A stretch of 44,824 bases of DNA from a virus (IMGVR_UViG_2778261573_000004:1-44824); one strand, 5' to 3'. Counted from the stretch's first letter, positions 1 to 27,716 are shown. Notes: generated by a model from the sequence alone, not told the origin. Program-made: numbers and translations.

Positions 1-549
1 TCAGCTAGCTGGAAACTTTTTATACAGAGTTGAGAGCCCTACTCCATACGTTTTTGATACGCTTTGTCGTGATTCACCGGTTGCCATCCGCTCCCCCATT
101 TCCCGCCATTGCTCATCCGTGAACTTAGGCCTGCGACCACCAACTCGCCCTTTTGCCCTGGCTACGGCCAGCCCTGCTAAGGTACGTTCGCTATTAAGAT
201 CAGATTCATATTGTGCTGCGGAAAGGATGTTACGAAAGTTATAGCGGCCGCTGGCTGTTTTGAGATCCACGCCATCGGTAATACTGCGGAAGTTGATACC
301 CTTTTCCTGTAACTGCTGGAACATCAACAGCGCATGCAGAACGTTGCGGCCTATCCTGTCCAGCTTCCAGACCACCAGTTCATCCCCCGGCTGCATAGTG
401 GCGATCAGCCGTTTTAGAACCGGCCGATTCGATTTCCTCCCGCTGGCATGCTCTTCAAAAATTTTCTCACAACCCGCTGACTTGAGCGCCGTTAGTTGCA
501 ATTCAGTGTCCTGGTGGTTTGTTGATACTCGGGCATAACCGTAAATCAT
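1..549 (-). CDS. pin: Serine recombinase, DNA invertase (Pin/Gin/Hin/Cin family)
   Basis: Protein from MIYGYARVSTNHQDTELQ has the resolvase-type N-terminal catalytic Ser motif and a C-terminal HTH; ATG at 549-547 with RBS AGGAGA upstream; lies next to an invertible tail-fibre segment. The longer ORF to 708 is rejected as an upstream extension. Confidence 0.9.
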   Translation of the reverse strand: MIYGYARVSTNHQDTELQLTALKSAGCEKIFEEHASGRKSNRPVLKRLIATMQPGDELVVWKLDRIGRNVLHALLMFQQLQEKGINFRSITDGVDLKTASGRYNFRNILSAAQYESDLNSERTLAGLAVARAKGRVGGRRPKFTDEQWREMGERMATGESRQSVSKTYGVGLSTLYKKFPAS

Positions 550-608
550 GGGATTTCTCCTGTTATGAAAACAGGAGAAACGGCGAAGCATCACCAGATT
601 TTTGATGG

Positions 609-634
609 TTATAAAAAAGGTTGGTTTGGGAGAA
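609..634. other. Invertase crossover site, left copy (cix/gix-like)
   Basis: Reverse complement reads TTCTCCCAAACCAACC..., sharing 14 identical nt (TTCTCCCAAACCAA) in inverted orientation with the site at 2554-2579; both sites encode the same peptide LGLGE in the two alternative fibre reading frames. Confidence 0.75.
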
Positions 635-1075
635 GCGGCAAAACGAAATGTGGGCAACGGGGAAAACCAAATCCCTGATATGTCTTTCTGGACGGTTACT
701 GGTGGCAATGGAAATTTTGTGATTCGTCAACCTGACGGGCTAATCATTCAGATGGTTACTGTAAGTATAAGCGGTCCAGTGGCGATGAATGGAATGACTG
801 ATAATGCTTATGCCATTACAGGTTCTAATAAGTCTTATATTGCCACAGCCACATTGCCCTTTGTATTTCCTAATAAGGTGCTGGGCGTTATCCCTCTGGT
901 ATCAACAACAGCTTATGGTGGTGTATCCAGTAATATTACAGGTTCATACGCGACGGCGGTTTGTTCTTTTGCCGCTGTTAGGGGGAATAATACGATTGTG
1001 TTCAAAGTCGACAAACCACTGAATGCAGCCTTTCCTTCAGATACCAGCGTCTCAGCGTTAATCATTGGACGGTAA
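621..1075 (+). CDS. Alternative tail-fibre C-terminal variable segment (silent orientation, expressed only after inversion)
   Basis: ORF 602-1075 has no independent start context but begins with the peptide KVGLGE encoded by the crossover site; after inversion it would fuse in frame to the constant N-terminal part of the fibre gene at 2580-2850. Confidence 0.6.
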
Positions 1076-1077
1076 GA

Positions 1078-1521
1078 ATGAACTCAGTATTCTTTTCACC
1101 CGCAAGTAAAAGTTTTTATCTGCAAGAATTGTTTCCAGAATATGAGGATGCGGGAACGCTTCCTGATGATGTTATTGAAATTACCAGAGAAACATATGAG
1201 CAATTTCTTGGGCTGCATCCAGAAGGGAAAGAAATTGGCGCTGACAGTTCAGGACGGCCAATATGGATTAATTCCCCGCCGCCTTCAAAAGAGGATGAGA
1301 TGCTGGCGGCTGAAATGAAAAAGATATCTTTGGTTTCAGAAGTCAATACCTACATCAATACCCATCAGTGGCCTGGCAAAGCTGCTATTGGTCGTCTGAA
1401 AGGTTACGAGCTGGAACAATATAATTTATGGCTGGATTATCTGGACGCACTGGAACTGGTTGATACCTCCAGTGCTCCAGATATTGAATGGCCTACGCCT
1501 CCGGTAGTTCAGGCCAGATGA
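1078..1521 (+). CDS. Tail fibre assembly chaperone, alternative copy (Tfa/U-prime-like)
   Basis: 147 aa ending in the conserved Tfa-type C-terminus (IEWPTPP); immediately follows the alternative fibre segment inside the invertible region. Confidence 0.65.
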   Translation: MNSVFFSPASKSFYLQELFPEYEDAGTLPDDVIEITRETYEQFLGLHPEGKEIGADSSGRPIWINSPPPSKEDEMLAAEMKKISLVSEVNTYINTHQWPGKAAIGRLKGYELEQYNLWLDYLDALELVDTSSAPDIEWPTPPVVQAR

Positions 1522-2098
1522 CATCCGACGCGGTGCTGGTATCTGTTGCAGTCACCGCGTCAATGTAATCCAGCACAGCGTTAAGCCGGGTTGTTTCTGC
1601 CTGCGTCAGCTTCCGCCCGGCCTGCAATTTCAGCTGAATCAGACTAATGGAAGCCATAGCAGCATCAATCAGTGACTGGCGCCGTACTTCTGCCGCGTCT
1701 ACTGCGGCGTTATGCTGTGCCTCAGTATCGGTCACCCATTTCTCACCATCCCATTTATCGTATGACGTTAACGGGGCGATAGTGGTTGTATTTTCAGGGT
1801 AATCACCCGGAACTGTGATTTCTTTTGATTCTCCTGTTTCGGTGCTATAGACGATTTCACCGCGATGGTCTGGCACATATTCCCATGAGTTAAAATCTGC
1901 AGAACGGCAAATTGCATAACCAGCTTTATATGAGCCAGGAGCATCTAAACAGGAACATGCCGGGATACCGACACCCACAGCAAGATATTCAGTTGATGTG
2001 GAAATATATTCCCGTGTTTCACCATCATAATTATAAACGGTAATGTCTCCGGCCTTTGTGGCGATGAGTTCATTATTTAATACAGCTTTACTTATCAT
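1493..2098 (-). CDS. Tail fibre assembly chaperone (Tfa/U-like)
   Basis: 201 aa, C-terminal VIWPELPEA motif typical of tail fibre assembly proteins; overlaps the fibre gene stop by 4 nt; inside the invertible segment. Confidence 0.75.
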   Translation of the reverse strand: MISKAVLNNELIATKAGDITVYNYDGETREYISTSTEYLAVGVGIPACSCLDAPGSYKAGYAICRSADFNSWEYVPDHRGEIVYSTETGESKEITVPGDYPENTTTIAPLTSYDKWDGEKWVTDTEAQHNAAVDAAEVRRQSLIDAAMASISLIQLKLQAGRKLTQAETTRLNAVLDYIDAVTATDTSTASDVIWPELPEA

Positions 2099-19107: not shown

Positions 19108-21237
19108 TTATTTCGGCAGGAGTTGCGATATTCGCTTACGTTTGACCGGCGCTGGTTCTTCAATAACCGCACCCGGCAGCTCGTAATTGATTTTTTCTTC
19201 CTGTCCAACTGGCGCTGGCAGGAACTTATCCGGATCGGCTTCGAGGTTGGCGGCCCGGACGTTGAGTTTTAACCCCATATGTTTGAGACCGCACAGCGCG
19301 GCATAGCTGTAAACGAGGCAGTCAAGCGCTTCGTTAGCTCGTCCTGGTATTGCTTCCCAGATACTGTACCGCTGCCCGGAAATGACTTTGTAAACCAGTC
19401 GCTCCGCCAGCAGCTGATTGAAGTACCCGAGATCGCGATCGTCAGGAAAATGCATATAACCCGCAGCGGCGGCGCCAGGTTTGGGTGGCTCAAGATGCAG
19501 GCGACCGCGTATCACGTCTTTCGCTGAGTTAACCCCCAGAATGACAGGGCGGAAACTGGCTTTGCTTTTCGATGATGGTCGTTTGGTCGGCCAGACAGGA
19601 TTGCGTTTGCCTCCCTGTGCAGACTCCCCCTTAATTGCCCAGACACGACGGCCAAGACGCTCTTTGGCGAATTCGTATACCTTCTGCGTATGGTGGCCGC
19701 CGGAGTCCATGCACGTTGCCATGATATTCAGGCCGCGCCCGTCACCACGTCGCCAGATCTGTTTCAGGTATGCATCCAGTCGCTTCCAGGGTTCTTCCGT
19801 CTCAAGGTCACCATAAATAACGTCATGCGCGACCGACCACGATTCTTCATCTCTCCCCCAGCCGGTGATCGTAATTTCGAAGCGATCGTCCTGGGTATCA
19901 ACTCCAGCTGTTAACAATGCCACCCCGTCCGGAACGACGGCCGGAAATATTTCCCGGCGCGCCAGCAGAACATCAACAGGGAGCTGTTTCCCATGATTAG
20001 GTCGGTGCGGAAGCCCCATCTGGGTATTCCACCACGCCTGTTCCTTATCCGGATCGCCCTTCGCATCGATATATTTTTTCGCAATATCCGACGGCTTATC
20101 TTTTTGCCAGGGGCTGAAAAGCTTGGATGCCTGGTACCCCGCGTGGTGGTTATCGACTGCCTCCTTTCCACAGGAGGGGCAGATTGCGCGATAGACCGCA
20201 TGCCGTTCCGACTCTGACCATTGCCAGACCTTTTCAACGCTGCCCTCGTCTGCCGCCCGCCAGGCAAGGTCATAATCCATCAGCGGTGAGTGCCGCTCCC
20301 CGCAGCACTCAAATGGGCGCGTCTGATGCCATCGAATAGTGTGCAGAGCTCTGAGGCGCTGTCCTTCGGACCAGCCACTACCACAGCATTCGCAATAGAG
20401 CATCGCCGATTTAGTCAGGTGTTTATCTCCCTCTTTCGGCCACTGAACGTGTTTGAAAAAGTCGGGGAACTGGCGGTGGCCACAGTGCGGGCAAACCACA
20501 GATGCCCGGCGCTGATCGGAGTCGGCGTAGCTGTCAGCAATGCGGCTCTCATCCTCCACCGTCGGCGAACAGGCGCGTACAGACAGCCAGGTCAGGCCAA
20601 ATGTCGCTGTACGCTCTTCGGCCAGCGCAATTGGATCGCCTTCGCGGGTTATCGGGTACTTGTCCACTTCATCCGCCAGCAGGACACGAATCGGACGACG
20701 CGCAAGGTTATCAGGGCTACCAGCACCCGCCAGCGCCAGAAATCCGCCAGTGAATGCCTTGTAAAGAATGGTTTCTTTCGAGCTTTTCTGTTTCGAATCA
20801 CCGATGATTTTACGCAGTACCGGTGTCACCCTTACCAGCGGGCTAATACGCTCTTTCGAAAACTGTTCAGCGGCTTCTTCTTTCGGCTGCAGCAGCAGTA
20901 TCGGACAAGGATCGAGGTGGGCAAAATAGCCAAAAAGGTTTTCCAGCAGTGCTGTCTTCATCAACTGGGTACAGCACATTACAGTGATGATATGAACCCC
21001 GGACTCCGTCGCGGCAAGCATCGGTCCGCGGGCAATTTCTACCGTCGATGTTTCCCAGTTTCCCGAAGTGCTCCCAGCCTCTTTTGCCAGCTTACGATAG
21101 TCATCTGCCCACTGCGGCACACTGATACGCGGCGGGGGTGTCCAGCCTTTGCGGACGCTTAATTCAAGACGCTCAATCTTCTGCCGGGTTAAACTCTGGC
21201 TCTCCGAGGACTGAGATGTGTTTGTGGACATGTTCAA
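19108..21237 (-). CDS. Terminase large subunit, lambda gpA family
   Basis: 709 aa; ATPase and nuclease regions typical of gpA; overlaps the small subunit gene. Confidence 0.95.
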   Translation of the reverse strand: MNMSTNTSQSSESQSLTRQKIERLELSVRKGWTPPPRISVPQWADDYRKLAKEAGSTSGNWETSTVEIARGPMLAATESGVHIITVMCCTQLMKTALLENLFGYFAHLDPCPILLLQPKEEAAEQFSKERISPLVRVTPVLRKIIGDSKQKSSKETILYKAFTGGFLALAGAGSPDNLARRPIRVLLADEVDKYPITREGDPIALAEERTATFGLTWLSVRACSPTVEDESRIADSYADSDQRRASVVCPHCGHRQFPDFFKHVQWPKEGDKHLTKSAMLYCECCGSGWSEGQRLRALHTIRWHQTRPFECCGERHSPLMDYDLAWRAADEGSVEKVWQWSESERHAVYRAICPSCGKEAVDNHHAGYQASKLFSPWQKDKPSDIAKKYIDAKGDPDKEQAWWNTQMGLPHRPNHGKQLPVDVLLARREIFPAVVPDGVALLTAGVDTQDDRFEITITGWGRDEESWSVAHDVIYGDLETEEPWKRLDAYLKQIWRRGDGRGLNIMATCMDSGGHHTQKVYEFAKERLGRRVWAIKGESAQGGKRNPVWPTKRPSSKSKASFRPVILGVNSAKDVIRGRLHLEPPKPGAAAAGYMHFPDDRDLGYFNQLLAERLVYKVISGQRYSIWEAIPGRANEALDCLVYSYAALCGLKHMGLKLNVRAANLEADPDKFLPAPVGQEEKINYELPGAVIEEPAPVKRKRISQLLPK

Positions 21238-21742
21238 TCAGCACCTCTGTCATCCTGTCCGCCGGTACATCCAGATCAGCAGCCATTAGCGGCGCCACCC
21301 TGGACGGCCAGTTAAGCCAGGCATCACGCTGTTGGCGAAAGGCGTTGAATAAAACCTCCTCGGCTGCTGTCAGCTCAATAAGCTGGCCGCTGTCTTTTTC
21401 ATACTGCAGCTTTGCCTGCAGGGCCATGTAATTCTCGCGGATACGTCCCGCTTCCTCTCTCGAAAGATCTGCCCCTTCAGTGAGCATTATCTGGCGGACA
21501 GTTTTATTGATTTCATCACCGTCATCATCGTTATCGCTAACGACGGGAGTTTTCTTTTTCTTCGCGTTCGAGGCGCGCGGGTCTTTGCCATCGCGGTTTT
21601 TCTTCAATGCCGCATCGCTGGCCTCTACGTCAATCAGGTCTCCGTCCATCACAATGAAGCGCCCGGCTTTAATCCACCGGCCAATTGTTTTGCGATCCAC
21701 ACCTGAATGTTGTGCGTACTGACTCTGGTTCATCGTGGTCAT
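21173..21742 (-). CDS. Terminase small subunit, Nu1-like
   Basis: 189 aa; N-terminal HTH-like segment (QSQYAQHSGVDRKTIGRWIKAG); its 3-prime end overlaps gpA and its start sits inside the cos-like repeat cluster. Confidence 0.8.
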   Translation of the reverse strand: MTTMNQSQYAQHSGVDRKTIGRWIKAGRFIVMDGDLIDVEASDAALKKNRDGKDPRASNAKKKKTPVVSDNDDDGDEINKTVRQIMLTEGADLSREEAGRIRENYMALQAKLQYEKDSGQLIELTAAEEVLFNAFRQQRDAWLNWPSRVAPLMAADLDVPADRMTEVLIEHVHKHISVLGEPEFNPAED

Positions 21743-21890
21743 GGGACATCACCTGGGACATTTTCTGGGGTGGGACATTCGCCTGGGACATTTTTGCCAT
21801 GTCCCACCAGAATGTCCCACTGGAATAAACTGGAATAGCCAGAGCTGGCGAGGTGTCCGTAATGATCGCCAGAGGTGGGACATGGGACAC
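21743..21890. repeat. Cluster of GGGACAT / ATGTCCC motifs (cosB-like terminase small-subunit binding elements)
   Basis: Eight copies in about 150 bp: GGGACAT at 21743, 21755, 21772, 21785 and 21877; ATGTCCC at 21799 and 21812; variant GGGACAC at 21884. Lies directly upstream of and overlapping the Nu1-like start. Confidence 0.6.
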
Positions 21891-22032
21891 AAATCTGAAA
21901 GTTGTAGCTAGGAAAACACCGCGGCGCGCAATGCCCGTACCTTACAAAAGTCTCAGGAAGGACCCATTTTTTTAATGGCTTCGACCATTCGCTCCGACTA
22001 TGATTATTCCTATTCAATACAAGGAGAATGTA

Positions 22033-22536
22033 ATGGGTAACAATATAATCAAAATAACTTTCGTAGCCGCAGTGCTGGCATCACCAATTGCTCATGCCCA
22101 GTGGGTAACTAATACTGAAGATGACCTTTTCTCTGGTGGTAAGAAAGCAATGATGCTTGGCGAGGTTTCATCCGACAATGGCGCCATTGTGTTTGACTGC
22201 ACTAAAGAAAAGCTATCGGCGGCATACGTTGAAATGGATAAAAGCACCGAATCACTATCAGAGGTACCAATGGACCTGATAATGAAGGTCGACGGGAATA
22301 CCGCAGTGAAGCTCGATGCTACCCTTTCAAGACGTAATGTTCAGAGCCTCCAGATTCAATCGGATGACGCGGACCAACTAAAAACAGTGCTTAAGCAGCT
22401 TCAGGGGGCGAAATCCAAAGTGTTAGTTGGTGTGCAAACAAAGGATGGCGGAAACCAGCATTCCATGTCAGCCAATGTTTCTGGATCGACAACTGCAGTA
22501 AACAGCTTCATAAAAGCTTGCGAAATTAACTTATAA
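22033..22536 (+). CDS. Secreted/periplasmic protein of unknown function (opposite-strand moron)
   Basis: RBS AAGGAGA 5 nt before ATG 22033; N-terminus MGNNIIKITFVAAVLASPIAHAQ is a classical signal peptide (AHA-Q cleavage); convergent with all flanking phage genes. Confidence 0.6.
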   Translation: MGNNIIKITFVAAVLASPIAHAQWVTNTEDDLFSGGKKAMMLGEVSSDNGAIVFDCTKEKLSAAYVEMDKSTESLSEVPMDLIMKVDGNTAVKLDATLSRRNVQSLQIQSDDADQLKTVLKQLQGAKSKVLVGVQTKDGGNQHSMSANVSGSTTAVNSFIKACEINL

Positions 22537-22546
22537 GTTACTGCTT

Positions 22547-23197
22547 TTATTTTGCCGTCCTGATGGCTTCTGCTATCGCCTGATTTAAAGCAGACGGTAG
22601 CAGTGCGTTCGCCATGGTACGGGCCCTATCCATATACCCCAGCACTGGAGTCACAGGTAGCGCATCACCAAACCGGATCAAAAGCTTTGGAGAACGCTGT
22701 TTGCGTTTCGGTCTTCGCGTCCCGTTAGCGGAACGTTTGGCCCGTCGCTTCTTAGCTTTCATCGGCTTCTTACGCTGCCAGACAGCGTTAACGCCATCAA
22801 CCTCACCTACGAATACATTTTCCTTTGCTTTAAGCTGTGAGAGCTTATTACGCGGCAGGTTGCCGTATTTATTAAGCTTTATGTCTTTCGGGTTAAGCAA
22901 AGCACTTCCATTAAGCTTGTGCTCTCCGCCGAACTCGAAGGGTTCAAGGTAACCAGCAGCAGTATCACGAACAAACACCTTCGCACGAAGGCTGTTTTTC
23001 CTGGCACCAACTGACCCAACCGATTTAACTGTAAAAGGTGTTGGATTATCCAGATTCCGCTCAAATGCTGTTTTTTGGGCCGCTTCTATCTGGCGAACCA
23101 CTTTAGTCATAGCCTGGGCAGTCGCAAACGGTATTTGCTTCTGCAGCTGTCTTAACTGACTGGAAAGGTCCTTAAGCGTTGCCATATCATTGACCAC
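22547..23197 (-). CDS. Hypothetical phage protein with Lys/Arg-rich C-terminal region
   Basis: 216 aa ORF preceded by the terminator/promoter-like region at 23200-23262; no recognisable family. Confidence 0.5.
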   Translation of the reverse strand: MVNDMATLKDLSSQLRQLQKQIPFATAQAMTKVVRQIEAAQKTAFERNLDNPTPFTVKSVGSVGARKNSLRAKVFVRDTAAGYLEPFEFGGEHKLNGSALLNPKDIKLNKYGNLPRNKLSQLKAKENVFVGEVDGVNAVWQRKKPMKAKKRRAKRSANGTRRPKRKQRSPKLLIRFGDALPVTPVLGYMDRARTMANALLPSALNQAIAEAIRTAK

Positions 23198-23239: not shown

Positions 23240-23265
23240 ATAAAAAACCGCCCGTAGGCGGTTAG
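23240..23265 (-). terminator. Rho-independent terminator
   Basis: Minus-strand RNA AACCGCCUACGGGCGGUU followed by UUUUAUU; overlaps the stop codon of the 23262-23666 gene. Confidence 0.65.
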
Positions 23266-23698: not shown

Positions 23699-24169
23699 TC
23701 AATTTAAGCACTGCTCTTTGATGTATTCCTGCAAATATCCAACCTGTTTCGTCACTGTGACGATTCGCTCTCTGAGGGTGAAATAATCCCGTTCAGCGGA
23801 GTCAGTAAGTCGGGGGCCGGTAACATCGCCCAGGCCGCCGGTGCTGGTCGTTCCGTTCGCGGGACAGTTTGCGTTGAGCTGCAGCCGCTTACGGCCAGCA
23901 ATGACATCGCTATGCAGACGCTCAATGGTTTCTTTCGCATCAGCCAGTTCTCCGGTGTATTTGGCATCCAGTGCAGCGACATCACGCTGGCGCACCTTCA
24001 TGTCATCGATGGTATTTTTCGCAAGGCTGAGATTCTCAATTGCCTTGTCGCGCTGGTCTTTGTAGGTGATGGCGTTGTCGCGGTAGTGGTTAACGAAGAA
24101 CGCCAGCACGCCGATTACCGACACCACAATCAGTTGCAGCCAGTAACGCTTAACCAGCGCGCCAATCAT
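23699..24169 (-). CDS. i-spanin Rz (lysis cassette B)
   Basis: 156 aa with N-terminal TM helix (LQLIVVSVIGVLAFFV) and coiled-coil periplasmic domain; 4-nt overlap with the endolysin gene. Confidence 0.8.
   Translation of the reverse strand: MIGALVKRYWLQLIVVSVIGVLAFFVNHYRDNAITYKDQRDKAIENLSLAKNTIDDMKVRQRDVAALDAKYTGELADAKETIERLHSDVIAGRKRLQLNANCPANGTTSTGGLGDVTGPRLTDSAERDYFTLRERIVTVTKQVGYLQEYIKEQCLN
23752..23940 (-). CDS. o-spanin Rz1 (embedded in Rz, +1 frame)
   Basis: MRKKPLSVCIAMSLLAVSGCSS has signal peptide and lipobox LAVSGC; Pro-rich mature part; entirely embedded within the Rz ORF. Confidence 0.75.
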   Translation of the reverse strand: MRKKPLSVCIAMSLLAVSGCSSTQTVPRTERPAPAAWAMLPAPDLLTPLNGIISPSESESSQ

Positions 24170-24606
24170 GACAGGAACAGAGCCCGCTCTGCCTCCCGCC
24201 GACGTGTCAGCCCATTCAGCACCTTCCCACCAGCTTTATTCCAGCGCAGGAACTCATCGGCTGCACCAGCGTAATCTCCGGCGTTGAGTTTTCGCAGGAG
24301 AGTCGATGTCGACAATGACCGCGCACCGAGGTTATACGTGAACGACACCAGGGCATCGAATTGCCCCTGAGTCAGGCCAACTTTAACCAGTCGTGACACG
24401 TCACTTTCGTAACTGACCATTCCTGTCTTCAGCAGGCGTTCTGCCGTTTCCTGCTTAATTGTCATCCCGGCACGGATTGGTTTCCCGTCGACGGGCTGAG
24501 TCCAGCCATAACCGATCGTCCAAACGCCGACGCTGTCCTGATAGGCAGTGAGCTTGCAACCTTCGAACTCTTTGATCAGGGCAATGCCTTTATCACTGGT
24601 TTGCAT
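24166..24606 (-). CDS. Endolysin, phage lysozyme (GH24, T4/P22-type)
   Basis: 146 aa; MQTSDKGIALIKEFEGCKLTAYQDSVGVWTIGYG shows the lysozyme E...D...T catalytic spacing. Confidence 0.9.
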   Translation of the reverse strand: MQTSDKGIALIKEFEGCKLTAYQDSVGVWTIGYGWTQPVDGKPIRAGMTIKQETAERLLKTGMVSYESDVSRLVKVGLTQGQFDALVSFTYNLGARSLSTSTLLRKLNAGDYAGAADEFLRWNKAGGKVLNGLTRRREAERALFLS

Positions 24607-24910
24607 TCTTCATCCCCGTCAAGCGTTCCCAGAAATAGGTCAGAGCCACTGAACCCATCGCCCCGCTAATGCCGGACGTGACAAGGATCATGTGAAAACT
24701 CAACCCACTCTCCACGCTTATCAACCCGCCAATCAAACCGGTAAAGCCGGAGACAGCGATCTGTGCCAGCGCGTTTATCCAGCTCCATGTCGCTTTATTC
24801 TGCTTTACGTCGATCAGGTAGCGAACTAAACCGCCCCAGCATGCAATGCCGAGCAGGACTAACCAGGACAGGCCTACAATTTTGTGGTCGTCATTCATAC
24901 GCTTTGCCAT
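24593..24910 (-). CDS. Holin (lysis cassette B)
   Basis: Start at MAKRMNDD (ATG 24910-24908); multiple TM helices; overlaps the endolysin start. The longer ORF to 25102 is rejected because it runs through the terminators. Confidence 0.7.
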   Translation of the reverse strand: MAKRMNDDHKIVGLSWLVLLGIACWGGLVRYLIDVKQNKATWSWINALAQIAVSGFTGLIGGLISVESGLSFHMILVTSGISGAMGSVALTYFWERLTGMKNANQ

Positions 24911-24980
24911 ATCACCTCCGAAGGAACGGGGTGCTGTTTGTGTAGAGTGGAAGGATGCCAGGAAACAACGACCGGACATC

Positions 24981-25009
24981 GCAAATAAAAAAGCCAGCGA
25001 CAGGCTGGC
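24981..25009 (-). terminator. Rho-independent terminator (second of a tandem pair)
   Basis: Minus-strand RNA GCCAGCCUGUCGCUGGC (perfect 6-bp stem) followed by UUUUUUAUUUGC; embedded in a 16-bp direct repeat CGCAAATAAAAAAGCC also found at 25081-25096. Confidence 0.7.
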
Positions 25010-25081
25010 AATGTGAGGGTAAGGCAATGTCGGCTCTCTGGCCGAAGGGTCCCAGGTAGTGGGTTCTGTGTGCTGCGTACC

Positions 25082-25114
25082 GCAAATAAAAAAGCCCCGC
25101 ATAGGCGAGGCTGG
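25082..25114 (-). terminator. Rho-independent terminator (first of a tandem pair), after the peptidase gene
   Basis: Minus-strand RNA GCCUCGCCUAUGCGGGGC (7-bp stem, one mismatch) followed by UUUUUUAUUUGC. Confidence 0.6.
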
Positions 25115-25130
25115 AATCAGACAGGGGGGA

Positions 25131-26033
25131 TTAAGACTGGATATTCCAAATCATTGCGTTACCGTTATGATTTTCAATGATTTTTGCCAGTGGTGCTCCA
25201 CCAAAAGAATGCATGTAGCTGTGATGTATAGTCAAAACCAAATCTTGAAGTACTTGATCACTTTCAAGTTCGGTAACATTCAACCCAATTTTCTGCGCCT
25301 TATCAAAATGAATATGACGCGAGTGGGTATAGGTTGTGTGATGGTTGTTTAACTCTGAACAAACATGTGTTGCTTTTGATTCTGCCTCAGGATCATTATC
25401 AAACATGCCTGTCATAAGCCAATGCTTAACAATCTCATTTGCCCATTTGATTGCTTTCTCACACTCGCCGATGATCGTCGGGTTTAGCTTTTGAAGAATG
25501 AACTGCCACATCTGAACAGCTGCGGGATTTTGAAAAATTTCCGTCTGCGCACGATTCCATTCTTCAATGATGGCATGGGTGGAGAAACCGTTGAACTGAG
25601 GATCAATTGGGCCAATGTTGGACTGTTTACCCATGATGATTTCATTGGCACAACATGCAAGCATAGTTCCGCAGGACATTGAAATCATAGGAACAATTGC
25701 TCTGATGTTAGTTCCAAACTTCGACCTTAAGTAATGCCCGATTGATTCCAAAGCGGCAATATCACCACCTGGAGTATGAAGTATCAAATCCAACCCTTTT
25801 GATACATCTAAACCATTGATGGCTGTCATCAACCCGTTCTTATCATCATCAGTCATCTGAGTAAGATGGCGTACTTCTGCACCACCATGCTGTAACCACC
25901 CTGAGTAATATGTGATTACATTTCTTCCAGTATGATTCGAAAGTTGAGATAAGTATTTACGGCGAACCTCATCCATAGGACTTTTATGGGCGAGAGCCGT
26001 TATCTCGCCCAGTACGTCGCTCCAATTAGGCAT
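25131..26033 (-). CDS. ClpP/S49-fold serine peptidase (resembles SDH-family Clp-fold proteinases), cargo gene
   Basis: 300 aa; LILHTPGGDIAALESIGHYL and MISMSCGTMLACCANE resemble the PGG and nucleophile-Ser motifs of ClpP/SppA-fold peptidases; AT-rich codon usage unlike flanking genes; unrelated in sequence to the prohead protease at 16336-17202. Confidence 0.55.
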   Translation of the reverse strand: MPNWSDVLGEITALAHKSPMDEVRRKYLSQLSNHTGRNVITYYSGWLQHGGAEVRHLTQMTDDDKNGLMTAINGLDVSKGLDLILHTPGGDIAALESIGHYLRSKFGTNIRAIVPMISMSCGTMLACCANEIIMGKQSNIGPIDPQFNGFSTHAIIEEWNRAQTEIFQNPAAVQMWQFILQKLNPTIIGECEKAIKWANEIVKHWLMTGMFDNDPEAESKATHVCSELNNHHTTYTHSRHIHFDKAQKIGLNVTELESDQVLQDLVLTIHHSYMHSFGGAPLAKIIENHNGNAMIWNIQS

Positions 26034-26607: not shown

Positions 26608-27144
26608 TCATTTTCGTAACTTCTCAATCTCTCGTATACCCGCCAGGTTATTGTTGCCCTTCTCAATAACAGCCAGCAAAGGTTCAATCCAGAGGACGGC
26701 CTGGCAATACGTCATTGAGCTGGCGGCAGCGGTACTATCATCGGTTGCGTTAGTGTTCCCGGTATCGGGGTGCATTGCGCTGGCACGTAAACGGTACGCG
26801 TATTTGAGCAGCCCACCAGCGACATCAGCAGGAACAGGCAGATCACAGGTCTTTTCACGTCGGAGAATCTCCCGGTATTCGATGACAGTTTTCTCAGTAC
26901 CGGCATCGATCAGCGAGTTAAGGCGGTTGGCGTTCTCTGCTATCTGGTTAAACCGATTGAAGTTGAAAGCCTGTGTAGTTATCACCGTCGCCTGCAGCGC
27001 GTTATCATTACGTAATACCCGATTCTCACTCTGTTCTGTTTCAAGAGCTGAGCGGCTACGAACCAGTAATACGCTAAGCACTGCAATAATGATTACGACA
27101 GCCACCAGCAGAACCGCAACAATCGTAATTTTTCTGGGTTTCAT
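26608..27144 (-). CDS. i-spanin Rz-like (lysis cassette A)
   Basis: 178 aa with N-terminal TM helix (ITIVAVLLVAVVIIIAVLSVLLV) and periplasmic coiled-coil; follows the SAR endolysin with ATGA overlap. Confidence 0.7.
   Translation of the reverse strand: MKPRKITIVAVLLVAVVIIIAVLSVLLVRSRSALETEQSENRVLRNDNALQATVITTQAFNFNRFNQIAENANRLNSLIDAGTEKTVIEYREILRREKTCDLPVPADVAGGLLKYAYRLRASAMHPDTGNTNATDDSTAAASSMTYCQAVLWIEPLLAVIEKGNNNLAGIREIEKLRK
26712..26906 (-). CDS. o-spanin Rz1-like (embedded in Rz)
   Basis: Embedded +1-frame ORF with lipobox LVGCS and Pro-rich C-terminus; the true start may be the internal GTG at 26858. Confidence 0.5.
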   Translation of the reverse strand: MPVLRKLSSNTGRFSDVKRPVICLFLLMSLVGCSNTRTVYVPAQCTPIPGTLTQPMIVPLPPAQ

Positions 27145-27716
27145 CAGAATACCCCCGGAACTGATACCGGAATGCCAGGGTTAAGCGGCCCGAGTCCATC
27201 CCCCAGAACCTGAGGTTTCTCTGCCCACAGGCAAACTTCACGCTCAATCTCACGCCTCGTGATTAAACCCTTCCACTGTTTGTCACCAGCATAGATCCAG
27301 CGCCGCAGTTGTTCGCATGCGCCTTTCGAATCACCCTGGTTGATTTTTCGTAACAGTGTGGAGGTTTTGAAGTTTCCCGCGCCTACGTTATACGCAAATG
27401 AGTACAGCGCCCCTCTCATCGTTTCGGGGATCGGAGCATTGATATATGGGTTAATCTGTCGGGCGACAATATTCAGGTCTTTATCCAGCAGCGCCTGGCA
27501 CTCTGCTTTGGTGTAGGTCTTGCCGAGGATAATATCTTTACCAGTATGGCCCCAGCATACAGTCCACACTCCAACAACATCCCGATAAGGCTGATAGCGT
27601 ACACCTTCAAGGCCATCATTACCCGTTGGGCCAGTAATCAACGCCGCAGCGATAGCAATAGCGCCAGCGGGTATCGCTGCAATAACGCTATTCTTCAGCT
27701 TTGGTGGCATAGCCAT
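27144..27716 (-). CDS. SAR endolysin (phage 21 R21-like lysozyme)
   Basis: N-terminal Gly/Ala-rich signal-anchor-release domain ([19 protein letters not shown]) followed by [28 protein letters not shown], matching my recollection of the phage 21 lysozyme catalytic region. Confidence 0.85.

Follow-up and report, generated by a model that had tools for sequence, protein, structure and literature searches.

A single-gene moron just outside cos of an Escherichia coli lambdoid prophage encodes a predicted periplasmic protein

Background

Morons are the main route of prophage-driven change of the bacterial host, and most of them are unannotated. On the map of phage lambda, bor is located between Rz and cos, and the gene that is the subject of this work has a comparable setting in a 44,824-nucleotide stretch of viral DNA (IMGVR_UViG_2778261573_000004, positions 1-44824; hereafter referred to as the window). 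Like bor, it is a small, single, opposite-strand gene in the late unit between the lysis cassette and cos, and like Bor, its predicted product is an exported envelope protein, dispensable for the phage and present in only some of the related prophages. This gene, which we call the cargo gene, occupies positions 22033-22536 of the plus strand and lies in a cassette that we interpret as a single-gene moron just outside cos of an E. coli lambdoid prophage with a contractile tail.

The second group of described systems to be considered here comprises the superinfection-exclusion proteins. Genes of this type are common at genome ends and at module joints, and the known examples (Sp and Imm of T4, Llp of T5, Cor and Ltp) are, to our knowledge, membrane-anchored or lipoproteins. 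The third comparison is with IalB (invasion-associated locus B), for which the papers devoted to it give no mechanism. The cargo gene is unusually well defined among morons, with exact insertion junctions, a confident fold and a family that has no Pfam entry. To the unannotated PHROG 19473, to which its product belongs, our analysis adds a signal peptide, a fold, the evidence of empty sites and the range of genomic contexts. Its present standing is that of a well-characterised "hypothetical protein", which is no surprise. The parts of the cassette are as follows:

21967-22546, plus strand: whole cassette (insertion) of ~580 bp, missing from sister prophages
21967-22032, plus strand: AT-rich cassette leader of 66 bp (TTTTTTTAAT), with a candidate -10 element TATGAT at 21999-22004, a poor -35 element and a ribosome-binding site (RBS)
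22033-22098, plus strand: predicted signal peptide, residues 1-22 (MGNNIIKITFVAAVLASPIAHA), with n, h and c regions, an AxA motif and conservation in the family
22099-22536, plus strand: predicted mature exported protein (145 amino acids, 15.5 kDa, isoelectric point 4.95) and stop codon

An accessory cassette with exact junctions

The DNA comparison covered 59 complete E. coli genomes with related DNA, 21 of which contain the full region. Seven among the matches listed consist of two pieces (72% coverage) that skip about 560 bp, and the matches with 41% coverage stop at query base 867, which corresponds to position 21966 of the window. The prophages of E. coli AW1.7 and 2022CK-00450 share with the window the same terS protein (WP_000210383.1) and cos, and possess a 213-amino-acid homolog of the 216-amino-acid neighbour of the cargo gene, with no gene in between. 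According to the alignment with the loci L014 and L015, the left junction falls exactly after GGAAGGACCCA (21966), and the right junction coincides with the stop codon of the gene for the 216-amino-acid protein. The GC content of the cargo gene and of the cassette is 44.6% (44.6% also at the third codon positions of the gene), as compared to 55.4% in terL, 52.6% in terS and 51.8% in the whole window; the adjoining genes for the 216-amino-acid protein and a DUF2513 protein are also lowish in GC (49% and 44%, respectively). It is the combination of empty sites that have exact junctions with the deviating GC content that makes the cassette a moron in the structural sense. An earlier note on this DNA had recognised a layout typical of a moron, and the cassette indeed turned out to be accessory, with the empty sites in the AW1.7 and 2022CK-00450 prophages.

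Because sister prophages do without the cassette and the product is predicted to be exported by Sec, a structural role of the cargo protein in the virion is very unlikely, and we are highly confident that it is not part of the lysis machinery. The protein has no structural or lysis match in PHROG or Pfam, including the recognised virion function that the earlier note had set against its own proposal, and the position of the gene varies between phages.

Start codon and coding status

The ORF (open reading frame) on the plus strand extends over 22000-22536 (178 codons' worth of protein, i.e. 178 amino acids), and the true start is almost certainly the ATG at 22033, from which a protein of 167 amino acids is encoded by 22033-22536. 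This ATG is preceded at a distance of 6 nt by the RBS AAGGAG (22021-22026), in agreement with the strong RBS reported by the earlier note. The start annotated by PGAP in E. coli MLI104K1 (WP_001472855.1), a strain 100% identical to the window over 21700-22700, is the equivalent of the ATG at 22033 and gives the 167-amino-acid form, and the first residue of homologs from unrelated contexts matches the same start. The alternative ATG at 22000 was rejected, as it lacks a Shine-Dalgarno sequence and as both the homologs and PGAP use 22033.

Comparison of the cargo gene with eight homologs gave pN (nonsynonymous) values of 0.21-0.34 and pS (synonymous) values of 0.66-0.92, the synonymous sites being largely saturated. 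The protein matches the profile of phrog_19473 over the full length (E 1.6e-99), all 167 residues aligning with profile positions 1-167, and at least 1000 public contigs encode the exact protein, under the label "MULTISPECIES: hypothetical protein [Enterobacteriaceae]". Judging from the pN/pS contrast and the end-to-end profile match, it is not in doubt that 22033-22536 is a real gene under purifying selection. One might regard it as a chance ORF or a decaying, non-functional remnant, considering that no function is annotated for it anywhere and no promoter was found. However, the full-length conservation across genera, the saturated synonymous sites at a pN of 0.21-0.34, the 173 clusters of relatives at 50% identity, the confident AlphaFold2 (AF2) fold and the exact sequence on at least 1000 contigs speak to the contrary, and the fold, the family size and the purifying selection effectively refute this explanation, whose probability we regard as negligible.

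Signal peptide and mature protein

The N-terminus of the cargo protein is composed of an n-region MGNNIIK with one Lys, an h-region ITFVAAVLASPIA and a cleavage site AHA|QW that follows the -3/-1 rule; a rule-based reading, together with the conservation in the family, predicts cleavage by signal peptidase I after Ala22. The earlier note had proposed a Sec signal peptide cleaved after AHA, and every sequence criterion that we applied supports it. The hydrophobic N-terminal stretch is also present in 118 of the 119 distant family members, those listed ending with a small-x-small pattern before an invariant Trp. There is no lipobox ([LVI][ASTVI][GAS]C) at the cleavage site and no Cys in residues 1-55, nor does the mature part have a second hydrophobic segment (the maximum 19-residue Kyte-Doolittle average is 0.65). 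The product is thus predicted to be exported by Sec via a cleavable signal peptide and released in a soluble form, and the mature protein is probably located in the periplasm.

Among 129 diverse members, W24 (the second residue of the mature protein) and C56 are invariant, and D31, F33, D87 and C163 are conserved in at least 90%; the loop at residues 70-79 is the most variable stretch among close homologs. We propose, with moderate confidence, that Cys56 and Cys163 form a disulfide in the periplasm. The pair of cysteines is kept in every copy of the domain in the high-GC relatives P0118, P0137 and P0154, in which two or three tandem copies are found per secreted polypeptide (331-655 amino acids). 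In P0064 and P0079, a single copy of the domain is fused to an unrelated C-terminal extension.

Predicted fold and searches for related families

The AF2 model, built with an alignment of 27 sequences, has a mean predicted local distance difference test score (pLDDT) of 86.5 and a predicted template-modelling (TM) score of 0.79; pLDDT values below 50 are found for residues 1-20, and the disorder is confined to the signal peptide. The predicted fold is a beta-sandwich with two helices, in which seven beta-strands are followed by a helix, two further strands and a C-terminal helix bearing C163.

Searches of Pfam, NCBIfam and PADLOC with the protein as the query returned sub-threshold noise only (DUF7767, Rho_GDI, SigF and the type I S subunit), with no match to a catalytic family. 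The sole match to a defence protein in PADLOC-DB, to a type I specificity subunit (13 bits, E 0.007), is spurious. No Pfam family recurred among ten distant members or, subsequently, among 129 members of the family. The hidden Markov model (HMM) of IalB, PF06776, matched neither the query at E<=1 nor the 129 relatives at E<=0.05. The only match of the profiles A1 and A2 in the PDB, to a de novo designed protein (E 9e-4 and 0.087), was judged spurious. In the Foldseek search of the PDB the top hits were TEAD domains with a TM-score of about 0.25, which we rejected, nothing credible being found, and the structure search of BFVD returned only uncharacterised proteins of the T4-like phages KP15 and RB16 (E about 5e-5, TM-score about 0.5). 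At the level of the fold, and not of family membership, the model may bear a weak resemblance to periplasmic beta-sandwich modules such as IalB and the N-terminal domain of MotY. The structure prediction and Foldseek search suggested by the earlier note yielded a confident AF2 fold and no credible counterpart in the PDB, and its statement that no homology is recognised holds for named families and fails for unnamed ones, as the protein belongs to PHROG 19473 and to a broader, sizeable family. We found no publication that names the accession or PHROG 19473; a paper on the transcriptome of LF82 prophages concerns other genes.

Distribution of the family and its genomic contexts

Close homologs (46-99% identity) are found in Escherichia, Enterobacter, Citrobacter, Kluyvera, Klebsiella, Salmonella, Leminorella and Dryocola. 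An exhaustive HMMER scan yielded 173 clusters at 50% identity, 83 of them with E<=1e-10; most of the members are about 165 amino acids long. The distant member P0080, used as a query for related loci, gave five matches, on short contigs.

One context of the family is that of the window, next to cos; it recurs in prophages of Klebsiella aerogenes and Salmonella and in about 48 of 58 IMG/VR contigs. In Mu-like prophages of E. coli, the homolog is the last gene, following com-mom and located 188 bp from a Mu-type right end; the sequence is the same up to the right end at four different host insertion sites and diverges directly after it. The 188 bp 3' of the homolog (6505-6692 in L002-L005) end with ...GAAACGTTTTCGTGTTTTTCGTGCGCCGCCTCA, which presumably closely resembles the right end of phage Mu (the R1 transposase site). 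Elsewhere, the gene is found in the sense orientation in a Mu-like early operon, just before gemA/mor, and in a module of contractile-tail genes, either directly after the tape-measure gene or directly before it, beside a Doc-like toxin moron. A different packaging lineage has the gene on the opposite strand, flanked by Rz on one side and an unrelated TerS/TerL pair on the other, and on short metagenomic contigs it is found beside invertase or resolvase genes. In Serratia and Edaphovirga, the homolog belongs to a cargo-like region and adjoins a DUF3892 gene; genes for tail-fibre assembly and a D5 primase are near it in Edaphovirga, and a Fic gene in Serratia. In Leminorella and Ewingella, the context is the plain chromosome. 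The distribution among related prophages, in which the earlier note had seen a means of checking its proposal, thus comprises empty sites and at least five other positions of homologs.

A sheath gene is present in every phage carrier whose tail genes are in view. Because the homologs occupy several unrelated positions, we conclude that the family has been captured repeatedly by contractile-tailed temperate phages. In another contractile-tailed phage group (L075-L078; 9441-9923 in L076), the Doc-like toxin moron (phrog_577) is directly 5' of the homolog, and the two are inserted together between the tape-measure gene and the genes for the tail tube and chaperone; this site looks like a moron hotspot.

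Another copy of the family, disrupted by a frameshift, is carried by the 575-kb megaplasmid pSUH1_A of Pantoea agglomerans (L080, 6599-7434), directly 3' of an annotated gene for a bacteriocin immunity protein and near a truncated lysozyme gene. This location, as well as the Doc-like toxin moron that adjoins the homolog in some phages, brings to mind an orphan periplasmic immunity or inhibitor protein that binds and neutralises a toxin active in the periplasm, e.g. a peptidoglycan hydrolase acting as a bacteriocin, a type VI secretion system effector or a phage tail lysozyme. The cargo protein has the general profile of such proteins: it is small, acidic, predicted to be exported by Sec, and has a conserved pair of cysteines and no enzymatic signature. 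However, none of the contexts examined has a cognate toxin gene next to the homolog, and the case from Pantoea is a single degraded copy next to an immunity gene and a lysozyme remnant, so that we consider this explanation rather improbable.

Expression and the life of the lysogen

Any expression of the cargo gene must use a promoter of its own, because the late transcript on its way to terS crosses the gene in the antisense direction. The leader may contain such a promoter. The sequence TATGATTATT also occurs 5' of the chromosomal homolog from Leminorella and is the sole upstream similarity between contexts. We suggest, with moderate confidence, that any transcription of the gene starts at a weak promoter of its own and most plausibly takes place in the lysogen; the sole argument for the latter, an indirect one, is that the gene is antisense inside the late transcription unit. 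Other members of the family are located in the sense orientation inside Mu-like early operons and tail operons. The family is therefore not tied to expression in the lysogen only, and these sense-strand copies in lytic operons argue against assuming lysogen-specific expression or lysogenic conversion for the family as a whole.

These observations bear on two explanations of the function. The first of them regards the cargo protein as a periplasmic factor of host fitness or virulence, which would have no phage target and would help the lysogen to survive in a host or under envelope stress, in parallel to Bor of lambda or to the IalB family. It would be in keeping with the position and the antisense orientation, shared with bor of lambda between Rz and cos, with the chromosomal copies in Leminorella and Ewingella, and with the carriers, Enterobacteriaceae of human, animal and aquatic origin. 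On the other hand, the protein lacks a lipobox and is hence not Bor-like, the copies that lie in sense within Mu-like early operons and tail operons suggest expression while the phage grows lytically, odd for a factor of this kind, and no mechanism is on record for IalB itself. We regard this explanation as unlikely, though by no means far-fetched. Should it be correct, the cargo gene would be a new gene of lysogenic conversion and might illuminate the enigmatic IalB family.

The second explanation assumes expression upon induction and a helper function in the lytic cycle, where the protein would either regulate the timing of lysis or mask receptors, sparing the progeny from adsorption to debris. 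The lysis module adjoins the gene in the window and in phages of the L058 type, relatives are found in the sense orientation within early and tail operons, and no strong independent promoter is detectable, all of which would agree with such a role. However, in the window the gene is antisense to the late operon, so that late transcription would give no product, sister prophages do without the gene, and the Mu-like copies are located after mom at the end of the genome, far from the lysis genes. We find a lytic helper improbable.

A possible role in superinfection exclusion

The explanation that we favour, albeit tentatively, is superinfection exclusion that acts while the genome is being delivered through the periplasm. 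The product is predicted, with high confidence, to be exported by Sec and, following the cleavage of the signal peptide, to be released into the periplasm as an acidic soluble protein; there it might function as a non-enzymatic binding module that protects the envelope of the carrier cell, most likely by interfering with incoming phages at the periplasmic step of genome delivery, with contractile-tail devices as the target. That the cargo protein acts by binding something in the envelope is our inference from its predicted properties. We favour exclusion because the carriers are contractile-tailed, one copy belongs to an early operon, and the family is sited at genome ends and module joints. 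The genes imm and sp of T4 are early genes, and the early-operon copy in one phage fits a role of phage versus phage.

Several observations weigh against superinfection exclusion. The association with contractile tails stems from a search for sheath markers only and from few independent lineages. Searches in PADLOC, Foldseek searches of the PDB and searches in BFVD revealed no relation to known exclusion or defence proteins. A tblastn search of 50,697 sequenced phage records with the cargo protein and the distant member P0168 gave no match, hence no experimental phage model carries the gene. The consensus scan detected neither a sigma-70 promoter in the 66-bp leader (21967-22032) nor a terminator in the 10 bp that separate the cargo gene from the convergent one. 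The copies in the chromosomes of Leminorella and Ewingella, outside prophages, suggest an ancestral cellular role. Finally, hypervariability of the kind expected from an arms race was considered and rejected: the drop in identity begins at cos and is equal over the gene for the 216-amino-acid protein, i.e. the divergence of the cargo gene tracks that of its neighbour and reflects a module boundary at cos, leaving no arms-race signature.

It is tempting to go further and to consider the cargo protein as the founder of a class of soluble periplasmic superinfection-exclusion proteins, portable as a cassette among contractile-tailed temperate phages at genome ends and module joints, and blocking the penetration of the tail tube or the tape-measure protein of rival or sister myoviruses or tailocins at its periplasmic stage; we consider this extended version doubtful. 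If it were true, the distant similarity in fold to IalB and to MotY's N-terminal domain would indicate that they share a scaffold for docking in the periplasm and possibly provide a hint to the ligands of IalB. A protein that blocks phage entry would matter for phage therapy and for the ecology of prophages.

Neighbouring genes and other features of the window

The cassette is bordered by the following features:

21742-21889, both strands: cosB-like array of TGGGACA/TGTCCCA repeats, abutting the start of terS at 21742, outside the cassette
21903-21966, no strand assigned: conserved GC-rich cos core of 64 bp (CGCGGCGCGC), cosN/cosQ-like, which ends on the right where the cassette begins
21173-21742, minus strand: terS, small terminase subunit, divergent neighbour (phrog_57, E 4.6e-36)
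19108-21237, minus strand: terL
22547-23197, minus strand: late-region gene for the 216-amino-acid protein, convergent neighbour (phrog_1924, 'minor tail protein'), present with or without the cassette

Eight of the ten copies of TGGGACA in the 44.8-kb window fall within 21742-21889, which probably represents a cosB-like set of binding sites of the small terminase. The cos core is near-identical in E. coli and K. aerogenes phages, the cosB regions of which differ (the array of the K. aerogenes phage is of the TGTTAC type), and it is also found in the prophages with empty sites. On the minus strand, the gene for the 216-amino-acid protein is followed by the DUF2513 gene, Rz with the embedded Rz1, the endolysin and the holin. 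The placement of the cargo gene between cos and the lysis-proximal genes, as described in the earlier note, is thereby substantiated, with terS and the TGGGACA array on one side and the 216-amino-acid protein, DUF2513, Rz and Rz1 on the other. The same note had the gene convergent with its neighbours, which is correct for the gene of the 216-amino-acid protein and incorrect for terS, from which the cargo gene diverges; nor is it the only sizeable gene on the plus strand of the late region, as ORFs for a tail fibre and a chaperone are located at 602-1521 of that strand.

The gene for the 216-amino-acid protein is constant between the lysis module and cos/terS in this lineage, an odd site for a tail gene; the C-terminal third of its product is very basic, and the protein has no match in Pfam or NCBIfam. 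A strong terminator-like hairpin (23246-23263, minus strand; AACCGCC-TACG-GGCGGTT followed by TTTTATT) is located just 3' of the DUF2513 gene (stop codon at 23262-23264) and 5' of the gene for the 216-amino-acid protein, within the expected Q-antiterminated late transcript.

Comparison with IMG/VR contigs (L051, L053) reveals a mosaic breakpoint at cos. Their identity to the window is mostly 95-100% over terL/terS up to about 21900, dips to about 92% over cos, and from about 22100 amounts to only 61-85% over the cargo gene and the gene for the 216-amino-acid protein; past about 23200 the sequences are unrelated.

Two tandem lysis cassettes (23699-25102 and 26608-27716) suggest a recombination scar or a duplication of the module:

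24593-25102: holin of the first lysis cassette
24166-24606: endolysin of the first lysis cassette
23699-24169: Rz of the first lysis cassette, with the embedded Rz1 lipoprotein at 23752-23985
25131-26033: gene for a protein of 300 amino acids that separates the lysis cassettes (phrog_11747, no assigned function)
27144-27716: endolysin of the second lysis cassette
26608-27144: Rz-like spanin of the second lysis cassette

The region 1-2100 of the window is an invertible tail-fibre segment, in which the gene for a DNA invertase (1-708, minus strand) adjoins ORFs on the plus strand:

602-1075, plus strand: alternative C-terminus of the tail fibre
1078-1521, plus strand: tail-fibre assembly ORF
1493-2098, minus strand: tail-fibre assembly gene, faced by the plus-strand ORFs

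Comparison with known systems

Despite the common layout, the cargo protein differs from Bor in several respects. Bor possesses a lipobox Cys and resides in the outer membrane as a lipoprotein, whereas the cargo protein has a predicted signal peptidase I site (AHA|Q), and there is no relationship between the two in sequence or in Pfam. Moreover, the expression of Bor in lysogens and the serum resistance it confers have been shown experimentally, while for the cargo gene expression in the lysogen is a prediction.

IalB (PF06776; PDB 3dtd) has 12% identity to the cargo protein, with no HMM match, and is mostly alphaproteobacterial and chromosomal, whereas the cargo family is largely phage-borne and found in Enterobacterales. 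MotY, a component of the T-ring of the Vibrio flagellum (PDB 8z5n, chain A), functions in the flagellar motor and has, in addition to its N-terminal domain, an OmpA-like domain at the C-terminus that binds peptidoglycan; in contrast, the cargo protein is single-domain and has no flagellar context.

None of the superinfection-exclusion proteins is related to the cargo protein by sequence or fold, and unlike the phage lipoproteins Cor and Llp, it has no lipobox. The similarity to Sp and Imm of T4, Llp of T5, Cor of phi80 and N15, and Ltp of TP-J34 would be an analogy of function only: all of them are small, phage-encoded, non-essential proteins that are exported or located in the envelope, they are sometimes expressed early, and their genes, like those of the cargo family, occupy variable moron positions.
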